64,000 nt of DNA from a virus (lineage: Duplodnaviria > Caudoviricetes), in the IMG/VR virus record IMGVR_UViG_3300047160_009226, positions 1 to 64,000 of that record, one strand, 5' to 3'. Made by a program: the position numbers and the translations under genes. The notes beneath the pieces were generated by a model. It was not told where the DNA came from. It did no database searches and worked only from the letters and a program-made list of their open reading frames with translations. Shown here one piece after another: positions 1 through 46,380 of this stretch. Within the stretch, counting starts at the first letter, position 1; every line of letters starts with the position of its first letter.

Positions 1-2398
1 GTAGCTTAAATTTCTTTTTCCTGGTCATCTCTATTTTGCCTTCCACAATGAGCTGTCCAATGACCTTCACTAGGTCACCAAAATCCATTCCCAATTTGCG
101 AGCAAGATATCGTACACTGCCTGAAAGGCGCTTGCTGTTCTTAATATGATTGTAAACTCTTTTAACTAGCCGTTGATGATGTTTAAGTGCCTTTTCGGCA
201 TTAGGATCGATCTCCATTCCCTCCGCAACCTCCTCTGCAACTTCCGCAACCAGATTACGCGCCAGTCTAAGATGCCTTTTGGCCTCCTGCTGAACCCGAA
301 CCATTCGAGCCCCAGGCCCCTCCAAAGCCACGGGAATCCCCCCAAGAGACGCCCTCAATGACCTCGGGGGCGGCTCCGCAGCCCCTACCCCCAACCCAAT
401 CCCATATCTGTCATTGATCACCCTGACCCCCAGGTACCAGTCCTGATTTGCACAGGTCCTATTAATCTGACGTGCAATTCTTTGTGCTTTTCTCAAATTA
501 GCAAGAGTCGCAGAAGCACGCCTCGCCTGCTTGGTCTTTGTTGAATTTAATGCATCATTACCAAGTTGTACAAAGCTATTTAAGTTTTTCATGACTTCAG
601 CCAAAACTTGCTGACTGATCTGAGGTCCTGCTTGAGTCAAAACCGTAGAAGCCGTACTCAAAAAACGAGATGCCGTAGCAAGTTTTTGATATAGGCCCTG
701 TCCTTGATTACCAAGATTGGCTTGTACAGTTACTGCCGCACCATTCACATATTCATTCAACTTATTGATGTTCATGACCATTGCACGCGGACTTACCTGT
801 GCACCAGGTGTAGAGAGGCCCTGCTGCAGCCGACTCGCTCCATTGACTGCCTGAGACACATATTCCCGCACTTTCTGATGCACTTGACCCGCAGTAACAG
901 GACCACCCACTGCAGCTCCCTGTCCTGCTCCTTGGGCTTGTGCAGCAGTTGTCGGTAGTGGTTTATTTTGTCTAATGAAAGTCTCCAAAAGAACATTCGC
1001 AGCAGTCATTCTTATCTGTGCGAGTGGACCGGACTTAACATCAGGATGACTACTCTTCAAAATGGTTCTAAGATTTGCTCGATCCTTATCTACGTCGCCC
1101 GTCCCTTGAATCTGCAAGGCATTCATAGCCTGTGCTGGCGTCATATTGAATTCAGCGGCTTTTCGTCTGGCTTGTTTAGTACTTTTAAGATCCGATATCT
1201 CCTCGGCATATCGACTGACCTCTTCCAAATTATGTGTCACTTCCTCTACGATGCTCTCATTAATCTGGCCTCCAACATGATTCAATGTCTTTAATGCTGT
1301 ACCCAAAAGCCAATGTGAACTTGACAACATTGCATAAAGACTATTGTTAGTTCCCAGATTGTTACTCACTAAAAACATTGCCTTATGAACAAGATCCGAT
1401 AATTCCGCAATTAACTTTGATGCATATCTCGAGTTTACTTGACTTGGATCTCCAGAGAAAATAGATAGTAGCTGATTGATCCCCTTCGTGGTTGGCTTCA
1501 CAAATCGCTGAACAACAAGATCATGCACACGTCCAGCAGTTCTCGGTCCACCAACAATCCGTCTGCGTCCACGGCGAGATGCCAACATCCCACCAATACC
1601 GCCCATTTCACCTCCAGGCGCTCCTCCCTGTTGCTGTTGCTGACCAGAGTATCCAGCCCCAGGTAAAGCCTGAGGTGTCATGGCTTGTTTGAGTGCAAGT
1701 ATATTTGCTTTTTGTTCCTGAAAGTATGTTGCTGCTGTATTGGCAAAAGTTTCGATGTCATCCCAATCATCTCCTCCAGGAGGAGTCTTCTTTATTGCTA
1801 AAATCTTAGTGTTCAAAAGATTCGTCAAACGATTCTGTCCAAAGGCTACCCACCTGCCATCAGGGAGTTTTTTAATACGAAGAGTTAACGGTGATTCTCC
1901 ATCCGTCGTAATATCCGGATGGTTAATGTTCCAAGACGAGTGCGACAGTCCACTTACAGTCCATCGAGCATCTCCTGGGGTTGCCCCTTGTGGATCCTTC
2001 AGGGATCGGGCTAATGAATCAGCAACTCGCCAAACAGCCGTTTGGAGATCACGCGTAACCATAGGGCGATGATCTGCCGGTTGATTTCTCTCCATTCTCA
2101 TTCTTGGCTCATGCGTTTTTGGCATCGCAGCCACCCTCTTTCTGAGTAGCTTTTTGTCTCTTTTGTGTGCCTGTAACTTAGCCTCATCCAGTAATTCTTC
2201 CTTGACGTCTGTCCGAAGCATATCAGGATCAATATGAATCTTGTTTATAACATATGCGTTCTGCTCTGGATCAAAAGTACCTCTGATATAACTTTTTCCT
2301 GAAGGTACTGATTGGTGTCTTTCGCCAATGTCTAGATATTGAAAGTGGTCAATCCATACTTCAAAATCATAGTTGTTGAACCGTGAAGTAATTTCCAT
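1..2398 (-). CDS. Large modular putative internal head protein (>799 aa, runs off the window edge) containing a J-domain
   Basis: Not in the ORF track. Translated by hand without stops from ATG at 2398 (MEITSRFNNYDFEVW...) to base 1 (...RKKKFKL). Contains RxA linkers (KRVAAMP, PRTAGRV, SRYASKL, RRKAAEF) and an HPD J-domain at about 983-1144. Confidence 0.85.
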   Translation of the reverse strand, partial: MEITSRFNNYDFEVWIDHFQYLDIGERHQSVPSGKSYIRGTFDPEQNAYVINKIHIDPDMLRTDVKEELLDEAKLQAHKRDKKLLRKRVAAMPKTHEPRMRMERNQPADHRPMVTRDLQTAVWRVADSLARSLKDPQGATPGDARWTVSGLSHSSWNINHPDITTDGESPLTLRIKKLPDGRWVAFGQNRLTNLLNTKILAIKKTPPGGDDWDDIETFANTAATYFQEQKANILALKQAMTPQALPGAGYSGQQQQQGGAPGGEMGGIGGMLASRRGRRRIVGGPRTAGRVHDLVVQRFVKPTTKGINQLLSIFSGDPSQVNSRYASKLIAELSDLVHKAMFLVSNNLGTNNSLYAMLSSSHWLLGTALKTLNHVGGQINESIVEEVTHNLEEVSRYAEEISDLKSTKQARRKAAEFNMTPAQAMNALQIQGTGDVDKDRANLRTILKSSHPDVKSGPLAQIRMTAANVLLETFIRQNKPLPTTAAQAQGAGQGAAVGGPVTAGQVHQKVREYVSQAVNGASRLQQGLSTPGAQVSPRAMVMNINKLNEYVNGAAVTVQANLGNQGQGLYQKLATASRFLSTASTVLTQAGPQISQQVLAEVMKNLNSFVQLGNDALNSTKTKQARRASATLANLRKAQRIARQINRTCANQDWYLGVRVINDRYGIGLGVGAAEPPPRSLRASLGGIPVALEGPGARMVRVQQEAKRHLRLARNLVAEVAEEVAEGMEIDPNAEKALKHHQRLVKRVYNHIKNSKRLSGSVRYLARKLGMDFGDLVKVIGQLIVEGKIEMTRKKKFKL

Positions 2399-6960: not shown

Positions 6961-8382
6961 TCAAGGATTATATCGAGCAATAAAAAAAGTAGTATACCAA
7001 TTAGTAGTGTCGTAAGTCGTATACCCAACAGCCACAATCTTACCATCGGACTGAATACCTATGCCTTCGCCTTCCTCATAAAGACCGGCAGGATCTGTAT
7101 TGAACCCATTAGTACCAAAAAGAGTGTCAAGGGAACCATCCGAATGATAACGACCTAACAAGGGTGTATAAGTAGCATTCTTATACGCGTATCCACATAC
7201 CACGATCTTACTATCTGATTGAACAGCGATCCTATAAGCAGCGTCATTAGTACCTGGAGTGGAAAAATTATATCCGTTGGTGGCAAAAGTCGTATCAAGA
7301 GAACCGTTGGAATTATAACGAGTCAATACAACGAAACCATTCGGACCATTATAGCTATAACCGCAAGCTACAATCTTGCCGTCTGACTGAATGATAAGTC
7401 CATCCAGCCAATTCTTAGACTTACCCACAGGAGTAAACGTATTATATCCCGTGGTATTAAAAGATGTATCCAAGGAGCCGTCGATGTTGTAACGGGCAAT
7501 CATAAAATTATCTGTGCCTGCATGTCCCACCGCCACTATCTTTCCATCGGATTGTCTATCAATAGCTCCAATACCGTTACTACTATCTCCAATAATATTA
7601 GAAGAAAAACCACTACCCGGTACTAGACCTGTAGCAAATGTGGTATCGAGAGTACCATTACTATTATAGCGGCCGATACCGATCGGAGTTGGAGAACCAA
7701 CACCAAAGGATGGACTGGTACTCCCGTATCTCACACCAACGATAATCTTATCGTCGGGTTGTATCATAAATGCACCATACTCTACCTTAGCACCGGCTAC
7801 CAAGTCCGGAGGAATAATCGCGGTAAAACCATTGGTTCCGAAAGTGGTGTCAAGAGTACCATCGGTATTATAACGGGCTATCACCTGTCGAGAAACCCCA
7901 GATAAAGTAGCTGATCCCAACGCTACTATCTTACCATCCGACTGAAGAGCTATAGAATCTAACGAGTCGCTCGTGCCTGGAGTGGCCGTGTTATAACCAT
8001 TCGTAGCAAAAGAGGTGTCGAAAGAACCATTGCTATGATAACGAACCAGAGCGAATCTATAACCACCTATAGAGACATAACCTGCAGCAATGATCTTGTC
8101 ATCTGGTTGAATGAGCACGGCATTAAGTCCATCCCCATTAGAAGGACTGACTCTGGAAAAACCATTGGATCCAAAACTAATATCCAGACTTCCTGGAGGT
8201 TGGGGAACAGGCACGGATGAAGGCTGATACTTATCTAGTAATACTCCAGAGATTTGCGTATAAGACATATTCGGGTTAGGATCCTTAGTATTCTGATATC
8301 TCTGCTTGATTTCGCTGAGAGTTTGCATCCTGGAACTCAAGTCAGTCCAGGAAGCAACAGGAGTATCATTAAAGGTTGCCAC
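6961..8382 (-). CDS. Delta-60 repeat 7-bladed beta-propeller protein (paralogue 1)
   Basis: Seven Q-[SP]-D-[GDS]-K-I blades, each with an ARYNxxGSLDTxF half-repeat; conserved ~60-aa N-terminal domain. Confidence 0.9.
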   Translation of the reverse strand: MATFNDTPVASWTDLSSRMQTLSEIKQRYQNTKDPNPNMSYTQISGVLLDKYQPSSVPVPQPPGSLDISFGSNGFSRVSPSNGDGLNAVLIQPDDKIIAAGYVSIGGYRFALVRYHSNGSFDTSFATNGYNTATPGTSDSLDSIALQSDGKIVALGSATLSGVSRQVIARYNTDGTLDTTFGTNGFTAIIPPDLVAGAKVEYGAFMIQPDDKIIVGVRYGSTSPSFGVGSPTPIGIGRYNSNGTLDTTFATGLVPGSGFSSNIIGDSSNGIGAIDRQSDGKIVAVGHAGTDNFMIARYNIDGSLDTSFNTTGYNTFTPVGKSKNWLDGLIIQSDGKIVACGYSYNGPNGFVVLTRYNSNGSLDTTFATNGYNFSTPGTNDAAYRIAVQSDSKIVVCGYAYKNATYTPLLGRYHSDGSLDTLFGTNGFNTDPAGLYEEGEGIGIQSDGKIVAVGYTTYDTTNWYTTFFIARYNP

Positions 8383-8443
8383 GACTTACATCCCCCAGTT
8401 GCTCTTACTGAAAAATATCATAACTCCCACTCGAATCTCTCTG

Positions 8444-9877
8444 TCAAGGATTATATCGAGCGATGAAAAAAGTACTATCATAACTAGTCTTGTCGTAAAT
8501 CGTATATCCGACAACCACAATTTTACCATCGGATTGAATACCCAGATCATAACTATAATCATAAAGACCGGGAGGATCTATGTTGAATCCATTGGTACCA
8601 AAAAGTGTGTCAAGAGAACCATCCGAGTGATAGCGACCTAACAGAGGTAGATAAGTAGTAGTCCACGCGTACCCACATACCACAATCTTACTATCTGATT
8701 GAACAGCAATACTATAAGCGTAATCATATGAAGCGGGAGTAGAAAAATTATAGCCGTTGGTGGCAAAACTAATGTCGAGTGAGCCGTTGGAATTATAACG
8801 AGTCAGTACAACCCAAGCAACTGAACCTGAACCATCATCACTCCCACCGCAGGCCACAATCTTGCCGTCTGGCTGGATGACAAGTCCTTCAAGCACATTA
8901 TACTTCTTACACACAGAAGGAGTAAGAAGATTATATCCCGTGGTATTAAAAGATGTATCCAAAGAGCCGTCGATGTTGTAACGGACAATCATGAAGTTAT
9001 CTGGACCAGTGCTTCCAACGGCTACTATCTTGCCATCGGATTGTCTAGCAATAGCTGAAATAGTGTTACTACTATCTCCAATAATATTGGAAGAAAAACC
9101 ATTGCCAGGCACTAAACCAGTGGCAAATGTAGTATCGAGAGTACCGTTACTATTATAGCGGCCAATACCGATCGGAGTCAAAGCACCACCACCAAGAGAT
9201 GGACTGGTACTTCCATATTTCGCACCAATGATAATTTTATCGTCGGGTTGTATCATGAATCCGCTGCTAAGAACCTTAGCGCCGGCTACCAAGTCTGGAG
9301 GAATAACCGCAGTAAAACCATTGGTCCCAAAAGTCGTGTCAAGGGTACCATCAGTATGATAACGGACAAGCGCCAGTCGTTGAATCCCCGATAAAGTAGC
9401 CGATCCTACTCCCACTATCTTACCGTCCGACTGAAGAGCTATAAAACTTAACGAGTCGCTCGTACCTGGAGTGGCCGTGTTATAACCATTCGTGGCAAAA
9501 GAGGTATCAAAAGAACCATTAGTATTATAACGAACTAGAGCGAATCTATTACCACCCATAGAGACTTGACCCGCGGCGATGATCTTGCCATCGGGTTGAA
9601 GTATCATGGCATTCAATCCACTCTTATTAGAATTAGAAAGACTGACTCTGGAAAAACCGTTGGAACCAAAACTAATATCCAGACTTCCTGGAGGTTGGGG
9701 AACAGGTACGGATGAAATTGGATACTTATCTGTTAATGCCCCCAATAGCTCCGTATAAGACAGATTCGATTTCGGATCCTTAGTATTCTGATATCTCTGC
9801 TTGATCTCACTGAGAGTTTGCATCCTAGAATTTAAGTCATTCCAGGAATTGATCGGAATATCATTCCAGGTCGCCAT
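8444..9877 (-). CDS. Delta-60 repeat 7-bladed beta-propeller protein (paralogue 2)
   Basis: Collinear tandem duplicate of paralogue 1 at both DNA and protein level. Confidence 0.9.
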   Translation of the reverse strand: MATWNDIPINSWNDLNSRMQTLSEIKQRYQNTKDPKSNLSYTELLGALTDKYPISSVPVPQPPGSLDISFGSNGFSRVSLSNSNKSGLNAMILQPDGKIIAAGQVSMGGNRFALVRYNTNGSFDTSFATNGYNTATPGTSDSLSFIALQSDGKIVGVGSATLSGIQRLALVRYHTDGTLDTTFGTNGFTAVIPPDLVAGAKVLSSGFMIQPDDKIIIGAKYGSTSPSLGGGALTPIGIGRYNSNGTLDTTFATGLVPGNGFSSNIIGDSSNTISAIARQSDGKIVAVGSTGPDNFMIVRYNIDGSLDTSFNTTGYNLLTPSVCKKYNVLEGLVIQPDGKIVACGGSDDGSGSVAWVVLTRYNSNGSLDISFATNGYNFSTPASYDYAYSIAVQSDSKIVVCGYAWTTTYLPLLGRYHSDGSLDTLFGTNGFNIDPPGLYDYSYDLGIQSDGKIVVVGYTIYDKTSYDSTFFIARYNP

Positions 9878-9885
9878 GATTACAC

Positions 9886-9904
9886 CTCCCGGTTACTCTC
9901 TTTG
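9886..9904. repeat. 19-bp direct repeat, copy of the protease gene 3' end (other copy 11292-11310)
   Basis: CTCCCGGTTACTCTCTTTG is identical at both positions and flanks paralogue 3. Confidence 0.85.
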
Positions 9905-9911
9905 GATCAAA

Positions 9912-11282
9912 CTACACGTAACGGGCCAGGGCAAAGACGTTCTTACCCCCTACAGTAGCCGGGCCACCGGCGACAATTCGACCACTGGACTGAACACCAA
10001 ACCCATAAATACTGTCGGACGTACCAGGGGTGGTGAGGTTGAAACCGTTCGTCGCGAAAGTCGTATCAAGAGAACCGTTTGCATTGTAACGGGCCAGGGC
10101 GAAAGCATTGTTAACCGAACCACCGGCTATAATTCCACCGTCGGATTGAATCATCAGCTCTTCAATAGAATTGTTACCACTGAAAGAAGTGATGATGTTG
10201 GAACCGTTCGTCCCGAAGGAAGTGTCCAGGGAACCGTTCGTGTTGTAACGTGCTATAACCACAGGGTAGTTACTCCCTATGGTGACAAAGCCTCCGGCTA
10301 CAATTTTACCGTCAGATTGGACCGCCAAAGCATAAATATAATCGTCAATACCGGGGGTAATGAGGCTGAAACCGTTGGTACCAAACGTGGTGTCAATGGA
10401 ACCGTTGGTGTTGTAACGGGCCAAGGCCCAAACGTAGGTACCTCCTACATAGGCGTAACCACCGGCGACGGTCTTACCGTCGGGTTGGATAGTGATGGTG
10501 TAAATTTCATCGTAAGTAGTGGGGGTAATGAGGTTGAAACCGTTCGTACCAAACGTGGTGTCAATGGAACCATCGATGTTGTAACGGGCCAGGGCGAAAC
10601 CATGATTACCCCCCACAGTAGCGGTACCACCGGCGACGATCTTGCCGTCGGACTGGATCGCCAAGTCTATTATAACAGATGCAGATGCACCGCTTGGAGT
10701 AGTAAAATTATAACCATTGGTGCCGAAGGTGGTATCAAGGGAGCCATTTATGTTATAACGGGCCATGGTAAAAGTATTACTACCCGCTATCTTGGAGACA
10801 CCACCGGCGATGATTTTGCCGTCGGATTGAAGGGCAATCGAACTAATACGATCAAAAGTGCTGGTGCCTGGAGTGGTGACGTTGAAACCATTAGTCGCGA
10901 AAGTAGTGTCAAGTGAACCATTTGAATTATAACGGGCTACGGCGAAAGTCGACTTACCGCCGACGGTGGCATAACCGCCGACGACGATTTGATCATTGGA
11001 TTGGACCGCCAGATCCTCAATAGCATCGGAAGTACCGGGGGTGATCAGGTTGAAACCGTTGGTGGCAAAAGAAGTATCAAGTATACCTTTGACTCCTGGG
11101 ACAGGGGCCATGATCGGAGGCACCTTCGGCAACTGATACCCCGTCAGCGCATTCTCAACCTGCAGGTAACACAGGTTTGGTAACGGGTCTTCAGTGTTAA
11201 TAAATCGTTGTTTTAACTTAAAACCCATCTGAATTCTTGAACCGTAATCATTCCAGGAGTTAACAGGAACATCACTGGACAT
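9912..11282 (-). CDS. Delta-60 repeat 7-bladed beta-propeller protein (paralogue 3)
   Basis: Seven QSDGKIVAGG...FALARYNxNGSLDTTF repeats; N-terminal domain related to paralogues 1 and 2. Confidence 0.9.
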   Translation of the reverse strand: MSSDVPVNSWNDYGSRIQMGFKLKQRFINTEDPLPNLCYLQVENALTGYQLPKVPPIMAPVPGVKGILDTSFATNGFNLITPGTSDAIEDLAVQSNDQIVVGGYATVGGKSTFAVARYNSNGSLDTTFATNGFNVTTPGTSTFDRISSIALQSDGKIIAGGVSKIAGSNTFTMARYNINGSLDTTFGTNGYNFTTPSGASASVIIDLAIQSDGKIVAGGTATVGGNHGFALARYNIDGSIDTTFGTNGFNLITPTTYDEIYTITIQPDGKTVAGGYAYVGGTYVWALARYNTNGSIDTTFGTNGFSLITPGIDDYIYALAVQSDGKIVAGGFVTIGSNYPVVIARYNTNGSLDTSFGTNGSNIITSFSGNNSIEELMIQSDGGIIAGGSVNNAFALARYNANGSLDTTFATNGFNLTTPGTSDSIYGFGVQSSGRIVAGGPATVGGKNVFALARYV

Positions 11283-11285
11283 GAC

Positions 11286-13481
11286 TCATATCTCCCGGTT
11301 ACTCTCTTTGTATCGAGACATAGGAACTATGGCCTTGAGCGGCTGTCCTGTGGAGACATCAGAATATTCCAGGAAACCATGCATGCGAGCCCAGAGGAAT
11401 GCGGGACGGGACACCCAAGAGACTTCCTTAAAACTGCAACTATCTTTTATGCCAGGAAGTCCACACAACTCAGATACGCGTCTTTTAATACCATTCTTGT
11501 CAATATAGTACTTGCCTAATTCGTTCTTGATATGGGTACAGTTATGTGATACAATTCCATTCGTCAAATAAGAACTACTCTCTGAATCAACGGCATCAAA
11601 AACTTCCATTTCTCCCCAAGGCTCCACTTTTACAACTTTATCAAACCACCAATCATAAGCCAGGTAGCTCCTCATTTCTTGCAGTATTCCATTTTCATCT
11701 TGAACATACTTATCCAGTAAATCAAGTACCCTCGGAAGCATTACATCAGATATCCCTTTATCTGTATCTTTCCTGACAGAATGAATCTGTCGTCTCTCTG
11801 ATGAATCAAAATCCTTTCCAAAGGATGTTCCATAAGGAACTAATTCTTTAATTTTATGGCCAGCCCTGAAAAATCCCAAGTAATCTCTTTCAATTCGCTT
11901 TGTTGTAAGTACACGTTCTAGTTTTTCTGTTTTTATTTCCGCAGAAAAACCAATATAATTTGCAAAGTTTATCCAACTCTTTGTTCCTTTAATCTCAAGT
12001 CGATACGAACGAGTAACCCCAAACGGTGTCCTCCCCACCCATCTTTTAATCTTAATGATTACACCAAATAACAAAGCAAGTTTCTTAATATCTTGGGCTA
12101 ACTTTCTATATTTTGTTCCCAAAGTAAGTCTACGAGTATTTCCTCCGGCTGATGTAATGTACCCCCCTACTCCGCCATCTGTTGTAAAAAGCCCATTCAA
12201 GAACGCCGCAATCTGTGCCCTTCCCCTCCTCCAAAGAGCCTCAGGTACACCTTCACATCTCCACTGCCCTTTCTTCCTAAAAGGAGGCAACACTTTAGTA
12301 AACTCAGGGTAGTAACTTCTTACCCGACAAAGACCCTCATTCCTCTTAACATCATTTGGAAAATCATCTGGCCCTCTAAACTCAGGGTTAACCGGGATTC
12401 CTCCCTCACTAAAAAACCGAAGCACTTTGTCTAGCGAATCAGTTTCATCTTCTGGTGACTGCCAATGGAAATATTCCGCCCATTTCTCACCGCGATATTC
12501 CCTATGCCCATCACCATAAAGATGTCCAAGAGCGTACCAAAAATCCGTTGACTCCCCACGATCCTCTGGAATTAACCCATCACAACCTTTCTTCGACAAA
12601 ACAAAATCACCTGGAATCAAATCCCATGTCATCTTCCATTGCAAACCACCTTCTACGTCCAATACCCGAAATCGATGATTTCCAGTAGAATAGATGTTTT
12701 CTCCTGAATCAGTCCTCACTCGAAAAATTTTCTTCACCCCCCTCGATATCACACCATCAAATGGGGTGTTTCCATATTCGCTCAAAACCATTCCTATACT
12801 ATTATTCTGTCTAATCTGTTCCCCGATCCTAACATACCCTTCAGAGGTAATAATTCTAGTATTACCAATCACGCAAGGCTCATCTATCCCTTCCTCAATT
12901 TTTTTGCCACATCTTGAGCATTGCGACCAAAGGATATCACAACCCATACTTATACTGTTCAAAACTCCGCCTATGATTTTTTTAACGAGCAGTGGATGTT
13001 TTTTCTTACTTGTTGCAAGAAGCACGTCAATAAATACGGTTGGGATGGGCTCACGGTGACCACTGTACTGCTTCTCTACGACCCAGGCCACAGCATCTAA
13101 TACTTTTCCTTTCGAGAATTCAGGAATAGAAACATGTTCTACGAAGTTCTCCGCCATGATAAAAGAATGATAACTCTCCAACAAAACCTGGTTCATCCAA
13201 CTATTGCCGTTGTCATTAATGTAGTGCGAATGTGGTGAGCAGATCGTATGTCCATCGTCTTCTACTTCAACACCTGCAACCGCCGTTATCCAACTTAATA
13301 AATAATCCGAAGGATTATACCTTGAAAAATCAACATTCACTTCTTTCTTAGCGACACGGCCGTTCCCTCTTAAATGACTTCGGTTCTTACAGTGCTGGTC
13401 CCATTGGTTCCAGTACCGCTCACCCGAAATCACCTGAGTCCTAAACTCTGGATGTGCAATAACTCGTCCCATACCTACCAC
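11286..13481 (-). CDS. Prohead (capsid maturation) protease with Zn-finger insertion, interrupted by an intein
   Basis: NDNGN, FVEH, KGKVLDA, SISMGC, CSRC...C(T)H and FKEVSWVSRPA motifs of HK97/assemblin-type phage proteases; extein product about 286 aa. Confidence 0.8.
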   Translation of the reverse strand: MVGMGRVIAHPEFRTQVISGERYWNQWDQHCKNRSHLRGNGRVAKKEVNVDFSRYNPSDYLLSWITAVAGVEVEDDGHTICSPHSHYINDNGNSWMNQVLLESYHSFIMAENFVEHVSIPEFSKGKVLDAVAWVVEKQYSGHREPIPTVFIDVLLATSKKKHPLLVKKIIGGVLNSISMGCDILWSQCSRCGKKIEEGIDEPCVIGNTRIITSEGYVRIGEQIRQNNSIGMVLSEYGNTPFDGVISRGVKKIFRVRTDSGENIYSTGNHRFRVLDVEGGLQWKMTWDLIPGDFVLSKKGCDGLIPEDRGESTDFWYALGHLYGDGHREYRGEKWAEYFHWQSPEDETDSLDKVLRFFSEGGIPVNPEFRGPDDFPNDVKRNEGLCRVRSYYPEFTKVLPPFRKKGQWRCEGVPEALWRRGRAQIAAFLNGLFTTDGGVGGYITSAGGNTRRLTLGTKYRKLAQDIKKLALLFGVIIKIKRWVGRTPFGVTRSYRLEIKGTKSWINFANYIGFSAEIKTEKLERVLTTKRIERDYLGFFRAGHKIKELVPYGTSFGKDFDSSERRQIHSVRKDTDKGISDVMLPRVLDLLDKYVQDENGILQEMRSYLAYDWWFDKVVKVEPWGEMEVFDAVDSESSSYLTNGIVSHNCTHIKNELGKYYIDKNGIKRRVSELCGLPGIKDSCSFKEVSWVSRPAFLWARMHGFLEYSDVSTGQPLKAIVPMSRYKESNREI
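11541..12875 (-). mobile_element. Intein (445 aa) with LAGLIDADG homing endonuclease
   Basis: Starts CVIGNTRIITSEG; block B STGNHRF; LAGLIDADG motifs ALGHLYGDG and FLNGLFTTDG; ends NGIVSHN followed by Cys. Confidence 0.93.
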
Positions 13482-18209: not shown

Positions 18210-18446
18210 TTAGTCCTTTTTAATCTTGTGCTTCTTTTTCACATCCTGCACACAGTGCTCAAAGCGTTCGTCCTTCTCTGGACCGAGTTGGCTGTGGCAT
18301 ACAGCCCAAGGATTGACTGCCTTGTATTTCTTCTTGGCACTGCGATCCGTGTCCAGATCTTCCATGTCCAATTCATCCTCATCGAATTCCTGTGGCACTT
18401 CCTTGTAACTCACAGCAACTCGCGTGTAGGCGTTACTCAGTTTCAT
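18210..18446 (-). CDS. Small protein with class-1 leader (MKLSNAYTRV)
   Basis: 78 aa; ends with NPWAVC...ERFEHCVQDVK. Confidence 0.75.
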   Translation of the reverse strand: MKLSNAYTRVAVSYKEVPQEFDEDELDMEDLDTDRSAKKKYKAVNPWAVCHSQLGPEKDERFEHCVQDVKKKHKIKKD

Positions 18447-23385: not shown

Positions 23386-25593
23386 TTAGTGAATTCCGTT
23401 TCTTGACCGTTTTCCGTTACCGTTCCCTGAAGATTTTCGCCTTCTAGCTTCGATTTCCACCGCTTTGATTATACCCTTCACCTCATCTGGATACAGCTGT
23501 CTCCCTTGTTTTAATTCCATCTCCTCAGATTTTGCTCTCAATGCCCTCCCAACAATCAATGAAACCTCTTTATTCAGTACACGACCAGGTACAATCTGTG
23601 ATTCATTATCCCCCTCTTCCTCATGTCTAGCCAATCTCCTCGAAGCCGCAGGTGCTGGCACCGGAGCCGCCCCAGGAGTCCCTCCTAGTCCCCCAGGTGC
23701 AGCCTCACCACCGACTCCACCCGCTGCGCCCGCTTCACCCGGTGCCCCGAACATACCCCCTTCTTCCCCGGGCATGCCCATAGGTCCTCCAAACTCTCCA
23801 CCTTCACCACCACCAGCCATTCCACCCATATCACTCAGTCCACCTCCTCCGCCTACGCCCATCCCTCCGCCACCACCCACTGCCGATGCACTTGGTTGCT
23901 TACGCACCAAATGTAATCCCGCTATAACTTTATCCAGAAAATTCGTCTCATTCAAAACCTTCTGAGGAGCATCGGTTGCAGTATAAACTGCACGCGTAAA
24001 ATCGTTAAATACTGGGTCTTTAGGCCCACCGATGTCTTCCAGGATCGCTCTGGCATTCTCTTCTGGATCGATGTTGTGTAAATCTAGCAGATACCGAACA
24101 GCAAGTGATCCCTTCTGATATAACTGGAATAGTTGATCATAAACCTCTGCATTATCACGGATAGAAATCCGATTAAATCTCAAAGTAGAATGATTCCAGA
24201 GGACGTTGACCAGGGTTCGCTTGCGACGAAGCTGTCCGTCTTCTTCCTCGGAAAGAATATCCCCTTCCTCGATATCCTCTGGTTCCACTCGTGGCCAGAC
24301 GTCGATAAATTCTTTCTGGTAGTGACCCAGAGAATCAGCAACAGGTTTAAAAATATCATCCTCGACAAATTTACGCATTCGATCCCTGAATGTTAAATAG
24401 GTTGTGTTCATCATTTCTAAAGTAATGCGATTTCCAGAATAAGAAGCCTGTCCCGTGAGCATTTCTACGGTCGATCCTAATCCCAGTGCAAGATCCTGAC
24501 GGAGCAAGTTATACTCATTTTCAGTGTTGAGGAGACGGTCATTAGCTCCTACAGTTTGCCAGTTGACTTCAAAATTAGTCACGATGGGGTAGTCTACCTG
24601 TTCTAGCATAGATAGGTCGATCTGGGCCCTTAGGTCGTCCATCTGAGGTTTGCCCGTCCCGGGGGCCGTCACAATATGCTTGGGATTCATATTCCTTGAA
24701 CTGATCTGGAGGTTCGAGTTCTTGAGGTTCTCTAAACGCAACAACGTATCCATACATCTTTCTATGATGCTCTCTCCATACTCTTCATTTGGTGCGCGGT
24801 TTCTTGCGATGTGTACAACATAACTTCCTCGTCTCCAGTTCGTGTTAAGAGGCACTGCTTCTCCATAATTCAGGGCCTCTTTAAGTTCAGGCGGAATAGT
24901 ATCACCGAGTGCTTCATAGAGTTTTTCTATATCGGTATCTGCAATTAAATACATGTCCCTATCTGTTATTCTTCTCACGGCCGCAGTGTCCACAAGAGGC
25001 TTAGCAAAAAAGATAATTTCTTTTTTGCGATTAAAGGGATGCATTAGAGAGTGGCAAAATTCGACTGGAAGCACATAGACGTCATCCCATTGTTGTAATT
25101 TATTACTCCAGTTGCACCAACAATAGACGTCACCCGCAAGCCAGTATTCTCGAGAAACCTCTAACATTAAACCTAAAATATCTAATCTCTCAGACATCGA
25201 TTCATAAATTCGCGTAATCTGTCGATTCTGTCGAGGAGATGGTCCCTTCGGTGGACCTATTGTAATTCGGCTCATCGGAAGTTCTGAGTGCAACTCAATA
25301 GCTCTACCCACCATAGCGTCGTGTCTTGACCAATACCTAAAAAGGGAAAGTTTGTCAGCTCTAGATATGGTATAAAGAAATGCAGCTACTGGAGAATTGG
25401 TTGCTAAAATTCCTGGAATGGCTGACCCGGCAGGTCCGCCAAAATCCAAGACACTAGCAACACCAGCAGCTTGTCGGCGAGATGCAATGCGAGCGGTATC
25501 GGTGAGATTACGAGTAAAGACTTCCATCGTCCCTCTCGTAGCGGGGCGATCATGAATAACAGATATTGGTTTCCAATCATCTCTATCAGGCAT
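23386..25593 (-). CDS. Portal protein
   Basis: 735 aa downstream of the terminase; RYW...DAMVGRAIELHSELP, YGESIIERC, RQDLALGLG motifs; Gly/Pro-rich C-terminal tail. Confidence 0.8.
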   Translation of the reverse strand: MPDRDDWKPISVIHDRPATRGTMEVFTRNLTDTARIASRRQAAGVASVLDFGGPAGSAIPGILATNSPVAAFLYTISRADKLSLFRYWSRHDAMVGRAIELHSELPMSRITIGPPKGPSPRQNRQITRIYESMSERLDILGLMLEVSREYWLAGDVYCWCNWSNKLQQWDDVYVLPVEFCHSLMHPFNRKKEIIFFAKPLVDTAAVRRITDRDMYLIADTDIEKLYEALGDTIPPELKEALNYGEAVPLNTNWRRGSYVVHIARNRAPNEEYGESIIERCMDTLLRLENLKNSNLQISSRNMNPKHIVTAPGTGKPQMDDLRAQIDLSMLEQVDYPIVTNFEVNWQTVGANDRLLNTENEYNLLRQDLALGLGSTVEMLTGQASYSGNRITLEMMNTTYLTFRDRMRKFVEDDIFKPVADSLGHYQKEFIDVWPRVEPEDIEEGDILSEEEDGQLRRKRTLVNVLWNHSTLRFNRISIRDNAEVYDQLFQLYQKGSLAVRYLLDLHNIDPEENARAILEDIGGPKDPVFNDFTRAVYTATDAPQKVLNETNFLDKVIAGLHLVRKQPSASAVGGGGGMGVGGGGGLSDMGGMAGGGEGGEFGGPMGMPGEEGGMFGAPGEAGAAGGVGGEAAPGGLGGTPGAAPVPAPAASRRLARHEEEGDNESQIVPGRVLNKEVSLIVGRALRAKSEEMELKQGRQLYPDEVKGIIKAVEIEARRRKSSGNGNGKRSRNGIH

Positions 25594-26480: not shown

Positions 26481-27233
26481 TTAGTTATCTAGAAAACCCC
26501 CTGATTCATACTTACAAAGAACAGAGCCGCCAGCAGAGAAACCACCCCCAGCTTTAAAAGTGCTGAAAAATCCCTCTGGTTTTCCCATGTCGATATGCAA
26601 AGGACTCCGATTAATTTTCTTCTCTATCATCTCTTTATATCTATCCGAATTTTGTTTGAAAATGTAATAAAAATGGAACAGTCCCCTCTTATATGTAATC
26701 GGACGAGTATAAGAGTGTTGCCCTGTAATACCAAACATCACTTCTTGGAAAACCCACTCAGATACATCTCCTTTGTTAAGTGTCTCCCACAATTCATTGG
26801 GTTGTTTATCAAAAACCTTATAGAGATCGGATCTCCTAAAAAGAGCCAGCACTTCACCATAAACCCTGCCAAAATCCTCGGGGTAGTCCCATATAAAATT
26901 CGTCCAAAACTGACCGGACCAAGGTGGTTGGTTCGTCCTCTTAAAAAAACCCTGTAATATAACTCTTGGCTCACCTGAAAAAGTACGCTCATAAATGATT
27001 TCAGCGATCTTACCAACCACAGGACTAGACTCAATCCATTTACGAAGTTTCGCCCCAAAAGTCTGGTTCAACCAACTCCAATCAGACCATTCTCCTCCAT
27101 CGTCATCACTATCATCATCTTCATCAACGGGCGGTAACCCAGGACCACCTACATCCGTTTTAAAACGTTCCAGTGGCTTAGAACGCTCCAAGGTCATGAC
27201 AGCAATTCGTGTATAGTCGTCAGTGAGAATCAC
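26481..27233 (-). CDS. Hypothetical protein with class-1 leader (MILTDDYTRI)
   Basis: 250 aa; overlaps the terminase stop. Confidence 0.75.
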   Translation of the reverse strand: MILTDDYTRIAVMTLERSKPLERFKTDVGGPGLPPVDEDDDSDDDGGEWSDWSWLNQTFGAKLRKWIESSPVVGKIAEIIYERTFSGEPRVILQGFFKRTNQPPWSGQFWTNFIWDYPEDFGRVYGEVLALFRRSDLYKVFDKQPNELWETLNKGDVSEWVFQEVMFGITGQHSYTRPITYKRGLFHFYYIFKQNSDRYKEMIEKKINRSPLHIDMGKPEGFFSTFKAGGGFSAGGSVLCKYESGGFLDN

Positions 27234-29359
27234 CGTCTTCCACCTCGTGGAATTAGAGGATGTCCTCTTTGTGTGCGAACCAAGACTTCCTGCCGCTGTC
27301 TAGCCATCTCAGCTCGATCCCTAATGCTACTAGTCGCTGCCGTTGATGTTCTTGAAGTAATGTTAGGAGGTTGCTGCACAATCTCAGTCTGTGCCACAAA
27401 GAGTGCTCGACTTACACTACTGTATTGATCATCATGCTGCCCTTCAGTTTCAGGACACCTAAGAGCAATCTTTTTCACGGAGCCACCCGTCTCTTTGCGA
27501 TCCAGCCGACAAAGTTCACGAATCAAGGAGTCATCTATCTTCCAATCCTCAAAAGGTACAAAAATAGTAAATTGTGCTTGCTCAATATATGCAATGAAGT
27601 TACGAGCTACTTGGTCATTAAAAGCTGCTGTCATATTAACGAGTTCAAGTCCATCACGAGCTTGTGATGTCAAGTGAGACGTAATTCCATACGCATTCCA
27701 CTGATCGCCTAGCCCCTTACGCACATTCCAACGGACCCAAAGCTCATCGATATGCTTGGCGATCTTTTTAATGGAGAGAAGATCTAGTTCTTCTCGAGTC
27801 TCGTCCAGATAGTCTTCATATCCAGGGAGTCCATAACCAATCACTTCATGTAAAATTAGTCGTCCAAGTCCCTCCGCATTCATGGCAATAAGAGATATTG
27901 TCGTACGGTCACTGCCTGCTTTCAATCCACCAAGGTCAAACCCACAAAACACATCTTCGCCAGGAAGTAACCATTGATGGCTACCTGGCTCCTGACGACA
28001 ACGCTCAACGACTTCTCGCGTAAAAGCCTTTCGATACTGATCACTGTACCTGGCTTCGTATTCCTGTTCATAACCAGCCGGATCGACTGCATGGAAACTT
28101 CGAAGTGCCTTCGAGCTTAGAAGCGGATTGACCCACGGACTCGGAATGTGTAATGCCAAGGAATTAGAAAGCTCAGAATCACCATCCCAGATACCCTGCT
28201 CAACTTCATACATATACGACTCCGTGGTCAGCGGAGTCGAAACAATGATCATTAATCCTTCAGGTTCATCTGTTTCTGGATTCTTTAAATCTGAAATTCC
28301 AGGTGCTATAGCAGTAAAAATCTCCTTATCACTTGAATTCGAATCCTTGATGTGGGACATGAAGAGCCCGAACTCTTCAAGAAGCCCTAACATGATCGCT
28401 GGACCACGAGTCGCTCTAGCAGAGCAAGGATCTGCTTTAACTTTAATCCCCGACTCAGAATCCAAACCATTGTCAATGTTATAAGGAGTGTTCAGATCAA
28501 TTCGTCTAACGTCGTCGTGATCAACGAATCTTCTGAGATAAGGAGATCTTTTAATAGTCGCCCTTGCAGGTGCTAGAAGATCCTGTGCCTGAACCTTTGT
28601 CGTTGCAATAAGAGTAATAGTAATCGGTTGATCGCGTCTAGTTTGATAATACTCTTGAGGGTGATACTTCTTCAAAACCCTATAACAAAAATAAGCCGCA
28701 ATCCATTGAGCTAGTGACGATTTGGTTCCTCTGCGACCGAGCCGGAACACCACTAAATTCATCTGCCGACCAAGATTTCGTTCGTATTCATCTCTGGAAA
28801 GAGAAATCCGACAATTATCTGCTCCAGGTCCATCTCCATAGAGAAAGTCAAAGAATTCGCTTTCGTTATACGTGCCTACAATATTCTCACGAAACTTATC
28901 CCAAACTTCGATGCGACCAATAACAGCGTCTCCAGCCAACAAAGGAACTTCAGGTTCTTCATCCAGTATTACGATCTTTTTAAGTAGGTTTACCTTCCGA
29001 ACTCTAACTGCCAGATTCTCTCCGATATCCAAGTATTTGACACGTCTGAATTGATCTGGCCGAAAACATTTGAACTGCGTAGGGCTGATAACTTCCGTAA
29101 CTAAGTCATCAGATCGGTCATCTAGAGGGATGCCAAAGATAACTTTAAGAATGAATCTTTGAATTGGATACGGGTTTTCATTGAGTCCCCATTCAGCCCT
29201 CACGTATTCTATAATGTCTATTATAGATTCTTTATCTTCTACGGGCTCTATGATACTCTGTACAATTTGATCGATTTCAGAACCAGTTGCGGATAGCCGC
29301 TTCCGGTCCTGGTTTCCTATCTCTCGGAGAATATCCTCCGCACTAAAATTACCAGTCAC
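27230..29359 (-). CDS. terL: Terminase large subunit
   Basis: Walker A LGRRGTKS, motif IATTKVQA, Walker B LLEEF, coupling motif VSTP, RNase H-like CGFDLG and HDD. Confidence 0.92.
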   Translation of the reverse strand: MTGNFSAEDILREIGNQDRKRLSATGSEIDQIVQSIIEPVEDKESIIDIIEYVRAEWGLNENPYPIQRFILKVIFGIPLDDRSDDLVTEVISPTQFKCFRPDQFRRVKYLDIGENLAVRVRKVNLLKKIVILDEEPEVPLLAGDAVIGRIEVWDKFRENIVGTYNESEFFDFLYGDGPGADNCRISLSRDEYERNLGRQMNLVVFRLGRRGTKSSLAQWIAAYFCYRVLKKYHPQEYYQTRRDQPITITLIATTKVQAQDLLAPARATIKRSPYLRRFVDHDDVRRIDLNTPYNIDNGLDSESGIKVKADPCSARATRGPAIMLGLLEEFGLFMSHIKDSNSSDKEIFTAIAPGISDLKNPETDEPEGLMIIVSTPLTTESYMYEVEQGIWDGDSELSNSLALHIPSPWVNPLLSSKALRSFHAVDPAGYEQEYEARYSDQYRKAFTREVVERCRQEPGSHQWLLPGEDVFCGFDLGGLKAGSDRTTISLIAMNAEGLGRLILHEVIGYGLPGYEDYLDETREELDLLSIKKIAKHIDELWVRWNVRKGLGDQWNAYGITSHLTSQARDGLELVNMTAAFNDQVARNFIAYIEQAQFTIFVPFEDWKIDDSLIRELCRLDRKETGGSVKKIALRCPETEGQHDDQYSSVSRALFVAQTEIVQQPPNITSRTSTAATSSIRDRAEMARQRQEVLVRTQRGHPLIPRGGRR

Positions 29360-45987: not shown

Positions 45988-46380
45988 TCACATAGCCGGT
46001 TGAACTGGTGCCCCCGGTGGTGCCGCCGGTGGTAATCCTGGTGCCCCGCCTGCAGCTCCTTCCGCCTCTCCTCCCGGCAACCCTCCTTCAGCCGGTACAA
46101 CCCCTGTCATTTGACCGGAAGGATGAATCAAATCGCCAGCCAGATTTTGTAATGTGACTTGCAAGTTCAGACCAGTCGTCGGATTCATGGCAGTAATCTT
46201 AATCGATCCGTCTTGATTGATCTCAGTACTTAAATTTGGAGGATAAATATCATACTCTTTCGTCAAGGAATTACGGATCATCTCAGATACTTGTCCAAGA
46301 TCAGGCGGCTGATCATCACCTGTTGTCTCAGCCGCCCATCGTGGAAGCTTCACACGCGTGAATTGCTCAGTAAACTGCAT
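45988..46380 (-). CDS. Hypothetical protein with Gly/Pro-rich tail
   Basis: 130 aa. Confidence 0.7.
   Translation of the reverse strand: MQFTEQFTRVKLPRWAAETTGDDQPPDLGQVSEMIRNSLTKEYDIYPPNLSTEINQDGSIKITAMNPTTGLNLQVTLQNLAGDLIHPSGQMTGVVPAEGGLPGGEAEGAAGGAPGLPPAAPPGAPVQPAM

Follow-up and report, generated by a model that had tools for sequence, protein, structure and literature searches.

The stretch analysed here, referred to as the window, comprises the first 64 kb (positions 1 to 64,000) of IMGVR_UViG_3300047160_009226, a linear IMG/VR record of 200,689 bp with an estimated completeness of 91%, which represents an uncultured soil jumbo phage of ~200 kb. Genome-wide picking of open reading frames (ORFs) places 196 of its 206 ORFs on the minus strand. 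One of them, at positions 2..2398 (minus strand, 799 codons), runs off the start of the contig and encodes a multi-module protein, called the carrier hereafter, in the middle of which lies a J-domain. The core of this domain corresponds to residues 419-472 (983..1144, minus strand) and comprises helix I, helix II, the HPD loop and helix III. The HPD tripeptide itself (H451, P452 and D453, encoded by CAT CCT GAT at 1040..1048, minus strand) occupies the loop between helices II and III of the structural model.

The carrier ORF was missing from the gene track, as the first-pass annotation of the window had pointed out, and it proves to be a real gene. It has seven close homologues, with identities of 54-77% in BLASTP local alignments and 72-83% in a MAFFT alignment, and a family-profile search found 40 relatives in a library of 1.8 billion representatives. 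The 54-residue peptide that had been proposed as a J-domain maps exactly to 983..1144 and is directly preceded by ...KSTKQARRKAAEFN. Full-length homologues extend ~97 residues past the cut end of the carrier (LPEPHTPVPGM...PDPTQPN). Circular closure of the contig was considered and rejected: the end-to-start join reads ...KFKLLRSPAVDACGVES followed by a stop, unlike the tail of the homologues, and the carrier gene is therefore truncated by the assembly. The genes located downstream of the carrier homologues in two related contigs, L002 and L006, are not found at the other contig end and are absent from the record.

The analysis of the J-domain segment by single-sequence searches returned nothing, either with Pfam and PHROGs (residues 400-500 and the whole carrier) or with phmmer against the PDB, where a query starting at residue 425 gave only a spurious match to MtrE. 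A profile built from the close set of family members with the segment (five sequences, including the window protein) placed the J-domain of E. coli CbpA at the top of the PDB matches, with an E value of 0.19. The match became significant once divergent relatives were added to this five-sequence profile. In these relatives, the segment lies at the N-terminus of P0035, P0042 and P0043 (208-234 aa), of P0020 (347 aa) and of the fragment P0009, and it resembles textbook J-domains (...LGI.GTG....DK..LR.L..KYHPD...). The Pfam DnaJ model, PF00226, is the best or sole Pfam match in all five of them, with E values of 0.004-0.03. HMMER with PF00226, the check named in the first-pass annotation, was thus negative on the carrier itself and positive only through its distant relatives, as the best Pfam match below the cut-off.

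The resulting 10-sequence alignment of the segment, designated A3, contains members that are 36-85% identical to the window segment. When searched against all PDB sequences, the A3 profile gave 38 matches at E<=1, 35 of them to J-domains, including CbpA (1.2e-7), a putative DnaJ (3lz8, 3e-7), E. coli DnaJ (3e-3) and Tim14 (2guz_A, 0.081). Comparison by hhalign of A3 with residues 1-77 of E. coli DnaJ (sequence from the annotated K-12 record) yielded a probability of 89% and an E value of 2.2e-6, with HPD in register with H33-P34-D35, a nearly invariant Arg column aligned to K26 and a Leu aligned to Y25. In the CbpA alignments a Met of the family pairs with a Phe, which we take to correspond to F47 of DnaJ. 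Mutagenesis of DnaJ has found the K26, Y25 and F47 positions to be essential. Furthermore, HPD is retained in nine of the ten A3 sequences, down to 36% identity.

The predicted structure points in the same direction. An AlphaFold2 (AF2) model covering residues 405-497, with a pLDDT of 74 overall and 80-89 in the core, contains helices at model residues 17-24, 32-46 and 54-71. The second and third form an antiparallel helix II/III hairpin with HPD, at 47-49, within the 47-53 loop. In a Foldseek search with this model, 13 of the 14 top PDB matches were J-domains, the best being 3ucs_C (probability 0.96, E 0.2), and many of the matches superimpose with an rmsd of 2.3-2.6 over 50-55 residues. Across 48,161 chains, an exhaustive VIA search ranked 2guz (Tim14-Tim16) first, with a Z score of 5.9 and an rmsd of 2.9 over 59 residues, and Ydj1 third, with a Z score of 5.0. 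Such modest scores are to be expected because the query is a helical domain of 60 residues. As far as a predicted model can tell, the fold searches converge with the sequence evidence on a J-domain.

The segment is also under strong purifying selection, since comparison of the window with L002 and L006 gives a pN of 0.07-0.16 against a pS of 0.64, with dS near saturation. Profile homology, predicted fold, conservation of HPD and selection together bear out the original call: residues 419-472, extending to ~483, form a divergent but genuine class C J-domain, that is, one that comes with neither the zinc-finger nor the C-terminal domains of DnaJ. The genome contains a single copy of it, and no Hsp70 gene was found in the phage genome.

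Several observations weigh against this assignment or against a working co-chaperone. PF00226 is silent at E<=1 on the carrier and on residues 400-500, and at E<=10 in the six-frame translated genome, under conditions in which control genomes did give matches. Even the five divergent relatives score only 14.8-17.7 bits on PF00226, compared with a cut-off of 27.8. The close homologue P0003 has HSD in place of HPD, together with a one-residue insertion. In absolute terms the fold searches score weakly (Foldseek E 0.2; Z 5.9), and the HPD motif may have steered the AF2 model. Moreover, the domain is dispensable for the core role of the carrier, since three close homologues do without it. A co-complex prediction with E. 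coli DnaK 1-605, ATP and the J-domain alignment scored 0.00 in the absence of controls, and speaks neither for nor against binding.

The anatomy of the carrier was deduced from the homologue alignment, self-comparison and structure models, and all of its features lie on the minus strand. Residues 1 to ~100 form a conserved region that opens with a leader-like N-terminus. The first residues, MEITSRFNNY (2369..2398; MEITSKFTRD in homologues), resemble a leader shared with many other genes of these phages, described below. An alpha-beta5-alpha sandwich domain follows at residues 105-262 (1613..2086). This domain is widely shared, being common to about 35 otherwise different proteins, and is modelled with a pLDDT of 89.5. 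CapZ, PsiB, T3SS-chaperone/YbjN-like proteins, frataxin and a P1 head chain were examined as known folds and rejected, all at Z<=7.3; it also matches uncharacterised jumbo-phage proteins in BFVD. The fold is left unassigned because the best matches are weak and heterogeneous. The sandwich domain contains a second HPD at residues 160-162 (1913..1921), within SSWNINHPDITTDG, whose His is invariant and whose Pro is nearly so (consensus W-x-I-x-HPD) across 37 sandwich-domain proteins. Located in a beta-rich region, this second HPD is not part of a J-domain.

A Gln/Gly/Met-rich linker (1553..1663) ends in MLASRRGRRR (junction 0), which represents the 'MASR' motif seen across the wider family. In P0018, P0023, P0024, P0026 and P0040, the N-terminal unit is constant and consists of the sandwich domain, a Gly-rich linker and a basic motif of the 'MASR' type; behind it, the C-terminal parts differ entirely between phages, one version reaching 796 residues. 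This arrangement looks like a carrier-plus-variable-payload family. In the window's protein alone, junction 0 is followed by an extra helical module at residues 283-405 (1184..1552). This insertion of ~135 residues, whose position is exactly that of the SRRxRRR junction, shares 33% identity with the module at 498-633. No DNA repeats were found at the junctions, and the duplication of the helical module must be old because no DNA-level repeat is left.

Next comes junction 1, STKQARRKAAEFN (1145..1183), which aligns with the leaders of free-standing J-proteins in relatives and immediately precedes the J-domain core. Behind the core, TFIRQNKPLPT (950..982) comprises the end of helix III and a nearly invariant [KR]-P-L-P-T motif. 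This motif (residues 479-483, 950..964) is conserved above most of the J-domain in 10 relatives and is a candidate docking or processing site. An Ala/Gln/Gly-rich linker (908..949) leads to the helical module at residues 498-620 (539..907), which is present in all homologues and for which no solved relative was found. No detectable relation exists between this module and the C-terminal parts of P0042 and P0043, so that the J-domain plus helical module is not a universal cassette. Junction 2, KTKQARRASATLAN (497..538), opens the way to the C-terminal region (2..496), with a small Gly-rich domain (QDWYLGVRVINDR...GGIPVALEG), helices and a probable winged-helix domain (~14..196); the labels given to this region rest on weak hints.

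The carrier gene is situated at the distal end of a head-gene block, amid leader-tagged genes, and its synteny is kept with L002 and L006. Upstream on the same strand are the genes for the large terminase (27230-29359), the portal (23386-25593) and a head maturation protease (11286-13481). These are followed by three DUF5122 beta-propeller proteins, a very acidic protein of 461 residues, proteins of 178 and 455 residues, and a leader-bearing protein of 66 residues. The protease gene (11286..13481, minus strand) was recognised by a PHROG match with an E value of 1.9e-5 and harbours a LAGLIDADG intein (Pfam Intein_splicing and LAGLIDADG_3); an attempt to type the protease with phmmer against the PDB gave nothing. 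The three tandem DUF5122 (delta-60) genes (6961..11282, minus strand) encode seven-bladed propellers, with E values of 1e-61 to 1e-76, and are bordered by the protease gene on one side and that of the acidic 461-residue protein on the other, an unusual presence in a head block.

The shared leader, termed class 1, has the form M-x-[ILF]-[TS]-x-x-[FY]-[TS]-[KR]-[VI]. It begins ORFs of the window such as 2402-2602, 18210-18446, 26481-27233 and 45988-46380, as well as most of the genes flanking the carrier homologues in L002 and L006. The N-terminus of the carrier, MEITSRFN (MEITSKFTR in homologues), matches 4-6 of the 7 class-1 leader positions. The free-standing J-proteins P0042 (MIFSDDFTKIRYAS) and P0043 (MIFTEDYSRV) begin with a class-1 leader, and so do their neighbours in L003 and L007. 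Moreover, the junction ahead of the J-domain in the window aligns with these leaders (STKQARRKAAEF / YTKVRQAAEF / FTKIRYASVF). The junctions ASRRGRRR, STKQARRKAAEF and KTKQARRASATL recur, align with leaders of the relatives and correlate with module boundaries. A single cleavage motif for all of them was sought by eye and rejected, as R-x-A, suggested in the first-pass annotation, and the phiKZ-like A-x-E each fit only some junctions. In L006 (5782-6341), a 74-residue ORF ends in the leader-like ...MRLTPHFSRIKAK where the next ORF starts with MTTMRFTPYFSRVNA. This ORF pair suggests that gene boundaries, too, are places of leader duplication.

The J-domain does not occupy a fixed position in these phages. 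Of the seven close homologues, three (P0004, P0007 and P0008) lack it entirely in the alignment, and the deletion or insertion behind this difference begins just past an SRRARRR motif. As it starts right behind this motif, modules have been gained or lost at junction motifs. P0020 (L005:6953-7996) begins with its leader and the J-domain; the helical module, an internal near-copy of the leader (LTPYYTRIRTAAE, compared with MTPYYTKVRQAAE in its own leader) and a homologue of ORF 45988-46380 follow in this order. The corresponding block of L005 is syntenic with the replication genes at 43-53 kb of the window, and from its sequence P0020 looks like the product of a cassette inserted by recombination within leader-coding DNA. 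P0042 and P0043 adjoin homologues of genes located at 112-114 kb of this genome. Together, the locations of P0020, of P0042 and P0043, and of the carrier put the J-domain at three separate sites in the genomes of related phages, in every case immediately after a leader or after its internal counterpart, a leader-like junction. Judged by these sequence comparisons, the J-domain is an accessory, mobile module inserted into different genes in a small clade of uncultured soil jumbo phages.

The distribution of this lineage is narrow. No match was obtained among GenBank phages by megablast or tblastn, nor in IMG/VR by a pattern scan, and a scan of metagenomes added one extra locus, L006. Only a few contigs from soil metagenomes contain the lineage.

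Given its sequence and predicted fold, the segment is probably a functional J-domain that recruits the DnaK of the host, a judgement that leaves packaging of the protein aside. In the standard manner of J-domains, helix II, through its basic face, and the HPD loop would dock on the ATP-bound DnaK of the host, the phage having no Hsp70 of its own. This docking would trigger the hydrolysis of ATP in DnaK, which would then clamp onto whatever the carrier protein holds nearby, be it the carrier itself or its partners. The domain itself is flanked by a helical module on either side, in a multi-module protein whose gene marks the distal end of the head block. The binding and stimulation of DnaK, like the client of the domain, are inferred.

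The readings that depart most from this one deny the domain either its ancestry or its activity. A helical linker could happen to contain HPD: the tripeptide alone is uninformative because the 206 ORFs of the genome contain 8 copies of it, among them the second one in the beta-rich domain of the carrier, and single-sequence searches gave no significant match. Such a coincidence is nevertheless vanishingly improbable, as the profile searches are significant and specific, the fold searches converge on J-domains and PF00226 is independently the best Pfam match in five relatives; within the limits of sequence statistics, it is excluded for practical purposes. A degenerate J-like domain, comparable to Tim16/Pam16, would have retained its fold for a structural or interaction role and lost the stimulation of Hsp70. 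The top exhaustive structural match would agree with this, being chain B of 2guz, which we take to be Tim16, with Tim14 as chain A; so would the score below the Pfam cut-off and the HSD of P0003. J-like proteins of this sort typically lose HPD. Its persistence in nine of the ten sequences, together with that of the basic position of helix II and of the hydrophobic positions aligned to DnaJ Y25 and F47, makes degeneration very unlikely here.

Two further readings concern the place where a working J-domain would act. It may be a cytoplasmic, non-packaged J-protein that retunes DnaK and the heat-shock response in the manner of the phage protein Rki, serves as an assembly co-chaperone or counters DnaJ-dependent defence sensors. 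This is a tentative but quite credible reading, favoured by the dispensability and mobility of the domain, by the probable winged-helix domain of the carrier and by precedent: Rki, the only characterised phage J-domain protein, acts in the cytoplasm (PMC3486835), and the DnaJ domains of jumbo phages are predicted to recruit host Hsp70 (PMC7824862). It requires a separate explanation for the constant place of the domain behind a leader that numerous small, mutually unrelated head-block proteins share. That constancy, maintained while the domain switches carrier, is what a packaged cargo would account for. In this model, which builds on the packaged recruiter released by cleavage that the first-pass annotation proposed, the leader would load the carrier into the prohead and the protease would cut at the junction motifs. 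Once released, by itself or joined to the helical module behind it, the J-domain would be injected or would recruit DnaK inside the assembling head. This model is compatible with recruitment of host DnaK, to which it adds a location and a processing step. It fits a gene downstream of those for the terminase, the portal and the intein-bearing head maturation protease, in a run of genes with class-1 or Arg-rich leaders. It is equally consistent with the class-1 leaders that open the relatives' free-standing J-proteins and align with the pre-J junction of the window, and with the internal leader near-copy at a module boundary of P0020. However, capsid targeting by the leader is only putative, neither R-x-A nor A-x-E is more than partly consistent across the junctions, typing of the protease gave no match, the J-bearing gene of L005 lies in a replication-gene block, and the junctions could be mere basic helical linkers. 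Packaging, although plausible from the gene context, is rather unlikely on present evidence.

A fuller form of the cargo model can be formulated, which we consider unlikely. The leader and junctions would carry the J-domain into the prohead, the protease would free it, alone or with the helical module, and it would be co-injected with the DNA, so that the host DnaK would encounter a phage co-chaperone before anything else and be directed by it to refold other ejected proteins, while the leader DNA would serve as a socket for hopping between cargo genes. If the leader were a capsid address tag, the DNA of the phage would enter the cell accompanied by a DnaK activator, which, if true, would be a concrete, testable answer to how proteins that are ejected unfolded become refolded on entry. 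Even without packaging, the divergence of this lineage means that standard domain models undercount phage J-domains.

Among known J-domains, those of E. coli CbpA and DnaJ (2kqx, 3ucs, 1bqz and 5nro) are the best sequence-profile matches to the phage domain. The alignment with CbpA is gap-free from helix I to helix III, and the HPD loop and the Arg/Lys of helix II are in register in both proteins. At ~20% identity, the phage domain differs from them by having neither the G/F region nor the client-binding domains I/II, and by the replacement of helix IV with the conserved [KR]PLPT motif. The first-pass annotation had assigned the domain to the Pam18/DNAJC19 type. Like Tim14/Pam18, Tim16/Pam16 (2guz) and DNAJC19, it is a minimal three-helix J-domain. 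However, Tim14 is a weak sequence match (E 0.08, against 1e-7 for CbpA with the same profile), and the structural scores of 2guz (Z 5.9) and Ydj1 (Z 5.0) are in effect tied. The subtype label is unsupported because the bacterial CbpA/DnaJ J-domains are much closer by sequence. Also unlike Tim14/Pam18 and DNAJC19, the carrier lacks a membrane anchor ahead of its J-domain; read from the sequence without a transmembrane predictor, that position holds a soluble helical module and the basic junction STKQARRKAAEFN.

The setting of the gene recalls the capsid-targeted internal proteins of T4 (IPI-III and Alt) and the phiKZ-type inner-body proteins, which are processed by the prohead protease. As with those proteins, the carrier gene lies in a head block together with a protease gene, and its product is modular, with recurring junction motifs and leader-tagged neighbours. 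In contrast, no homology of the carrier to any of them was found and, to our knowledge, no J-domain is known among the internal proteins of T4 or phiKZ.

J-domains are already known in phages (PMC3486835, PMC7824862, PMC12619734). Rki (ORF 057w) of the T4-like phage RB43 was the first functional phage-encoded J-domain protein and acts in the cytoplasm on DnaK and sigma32 (PMC3486835). Jumbo phages sporadically encode DnaJ-domain co-chaperones, predicted to recruit host Hsp70 for folding or assembly (PMC7824862), and 'moraphages' encode DnaJ/DnaK homologues (PMC12619734). Rki and the carrier both come from large genomes of the T4-like or jumbo myophage type, and both have a phage J-domain with HPD but without the DnaJ zinc-finger and C-terminal domains, presumed to work on the host DnaK. 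Rki, the only phage J-protein that has been studied, is small, free in the cytoplasm and readily recognisable, whereas the domain of the carrier misses the Pfam cut-off and is embedded centrally in a protein of 799 residues or more. Unlike Rki, it also follows a leader-like junction in a head-gene block, and in related phages it switches carriers, hopping behind a leader common to many head-block proteins. The DnaJs of jumbo phages and moraphages are recognisable homologues, some of them recently acquired from hosts. The domain described here belongs instead to a private, divergent lineage: invisible to Pfam, confined to a few soil contigs and behaving as a module that hops in association with a shared leader, it is a new addition to the phage J-domains.

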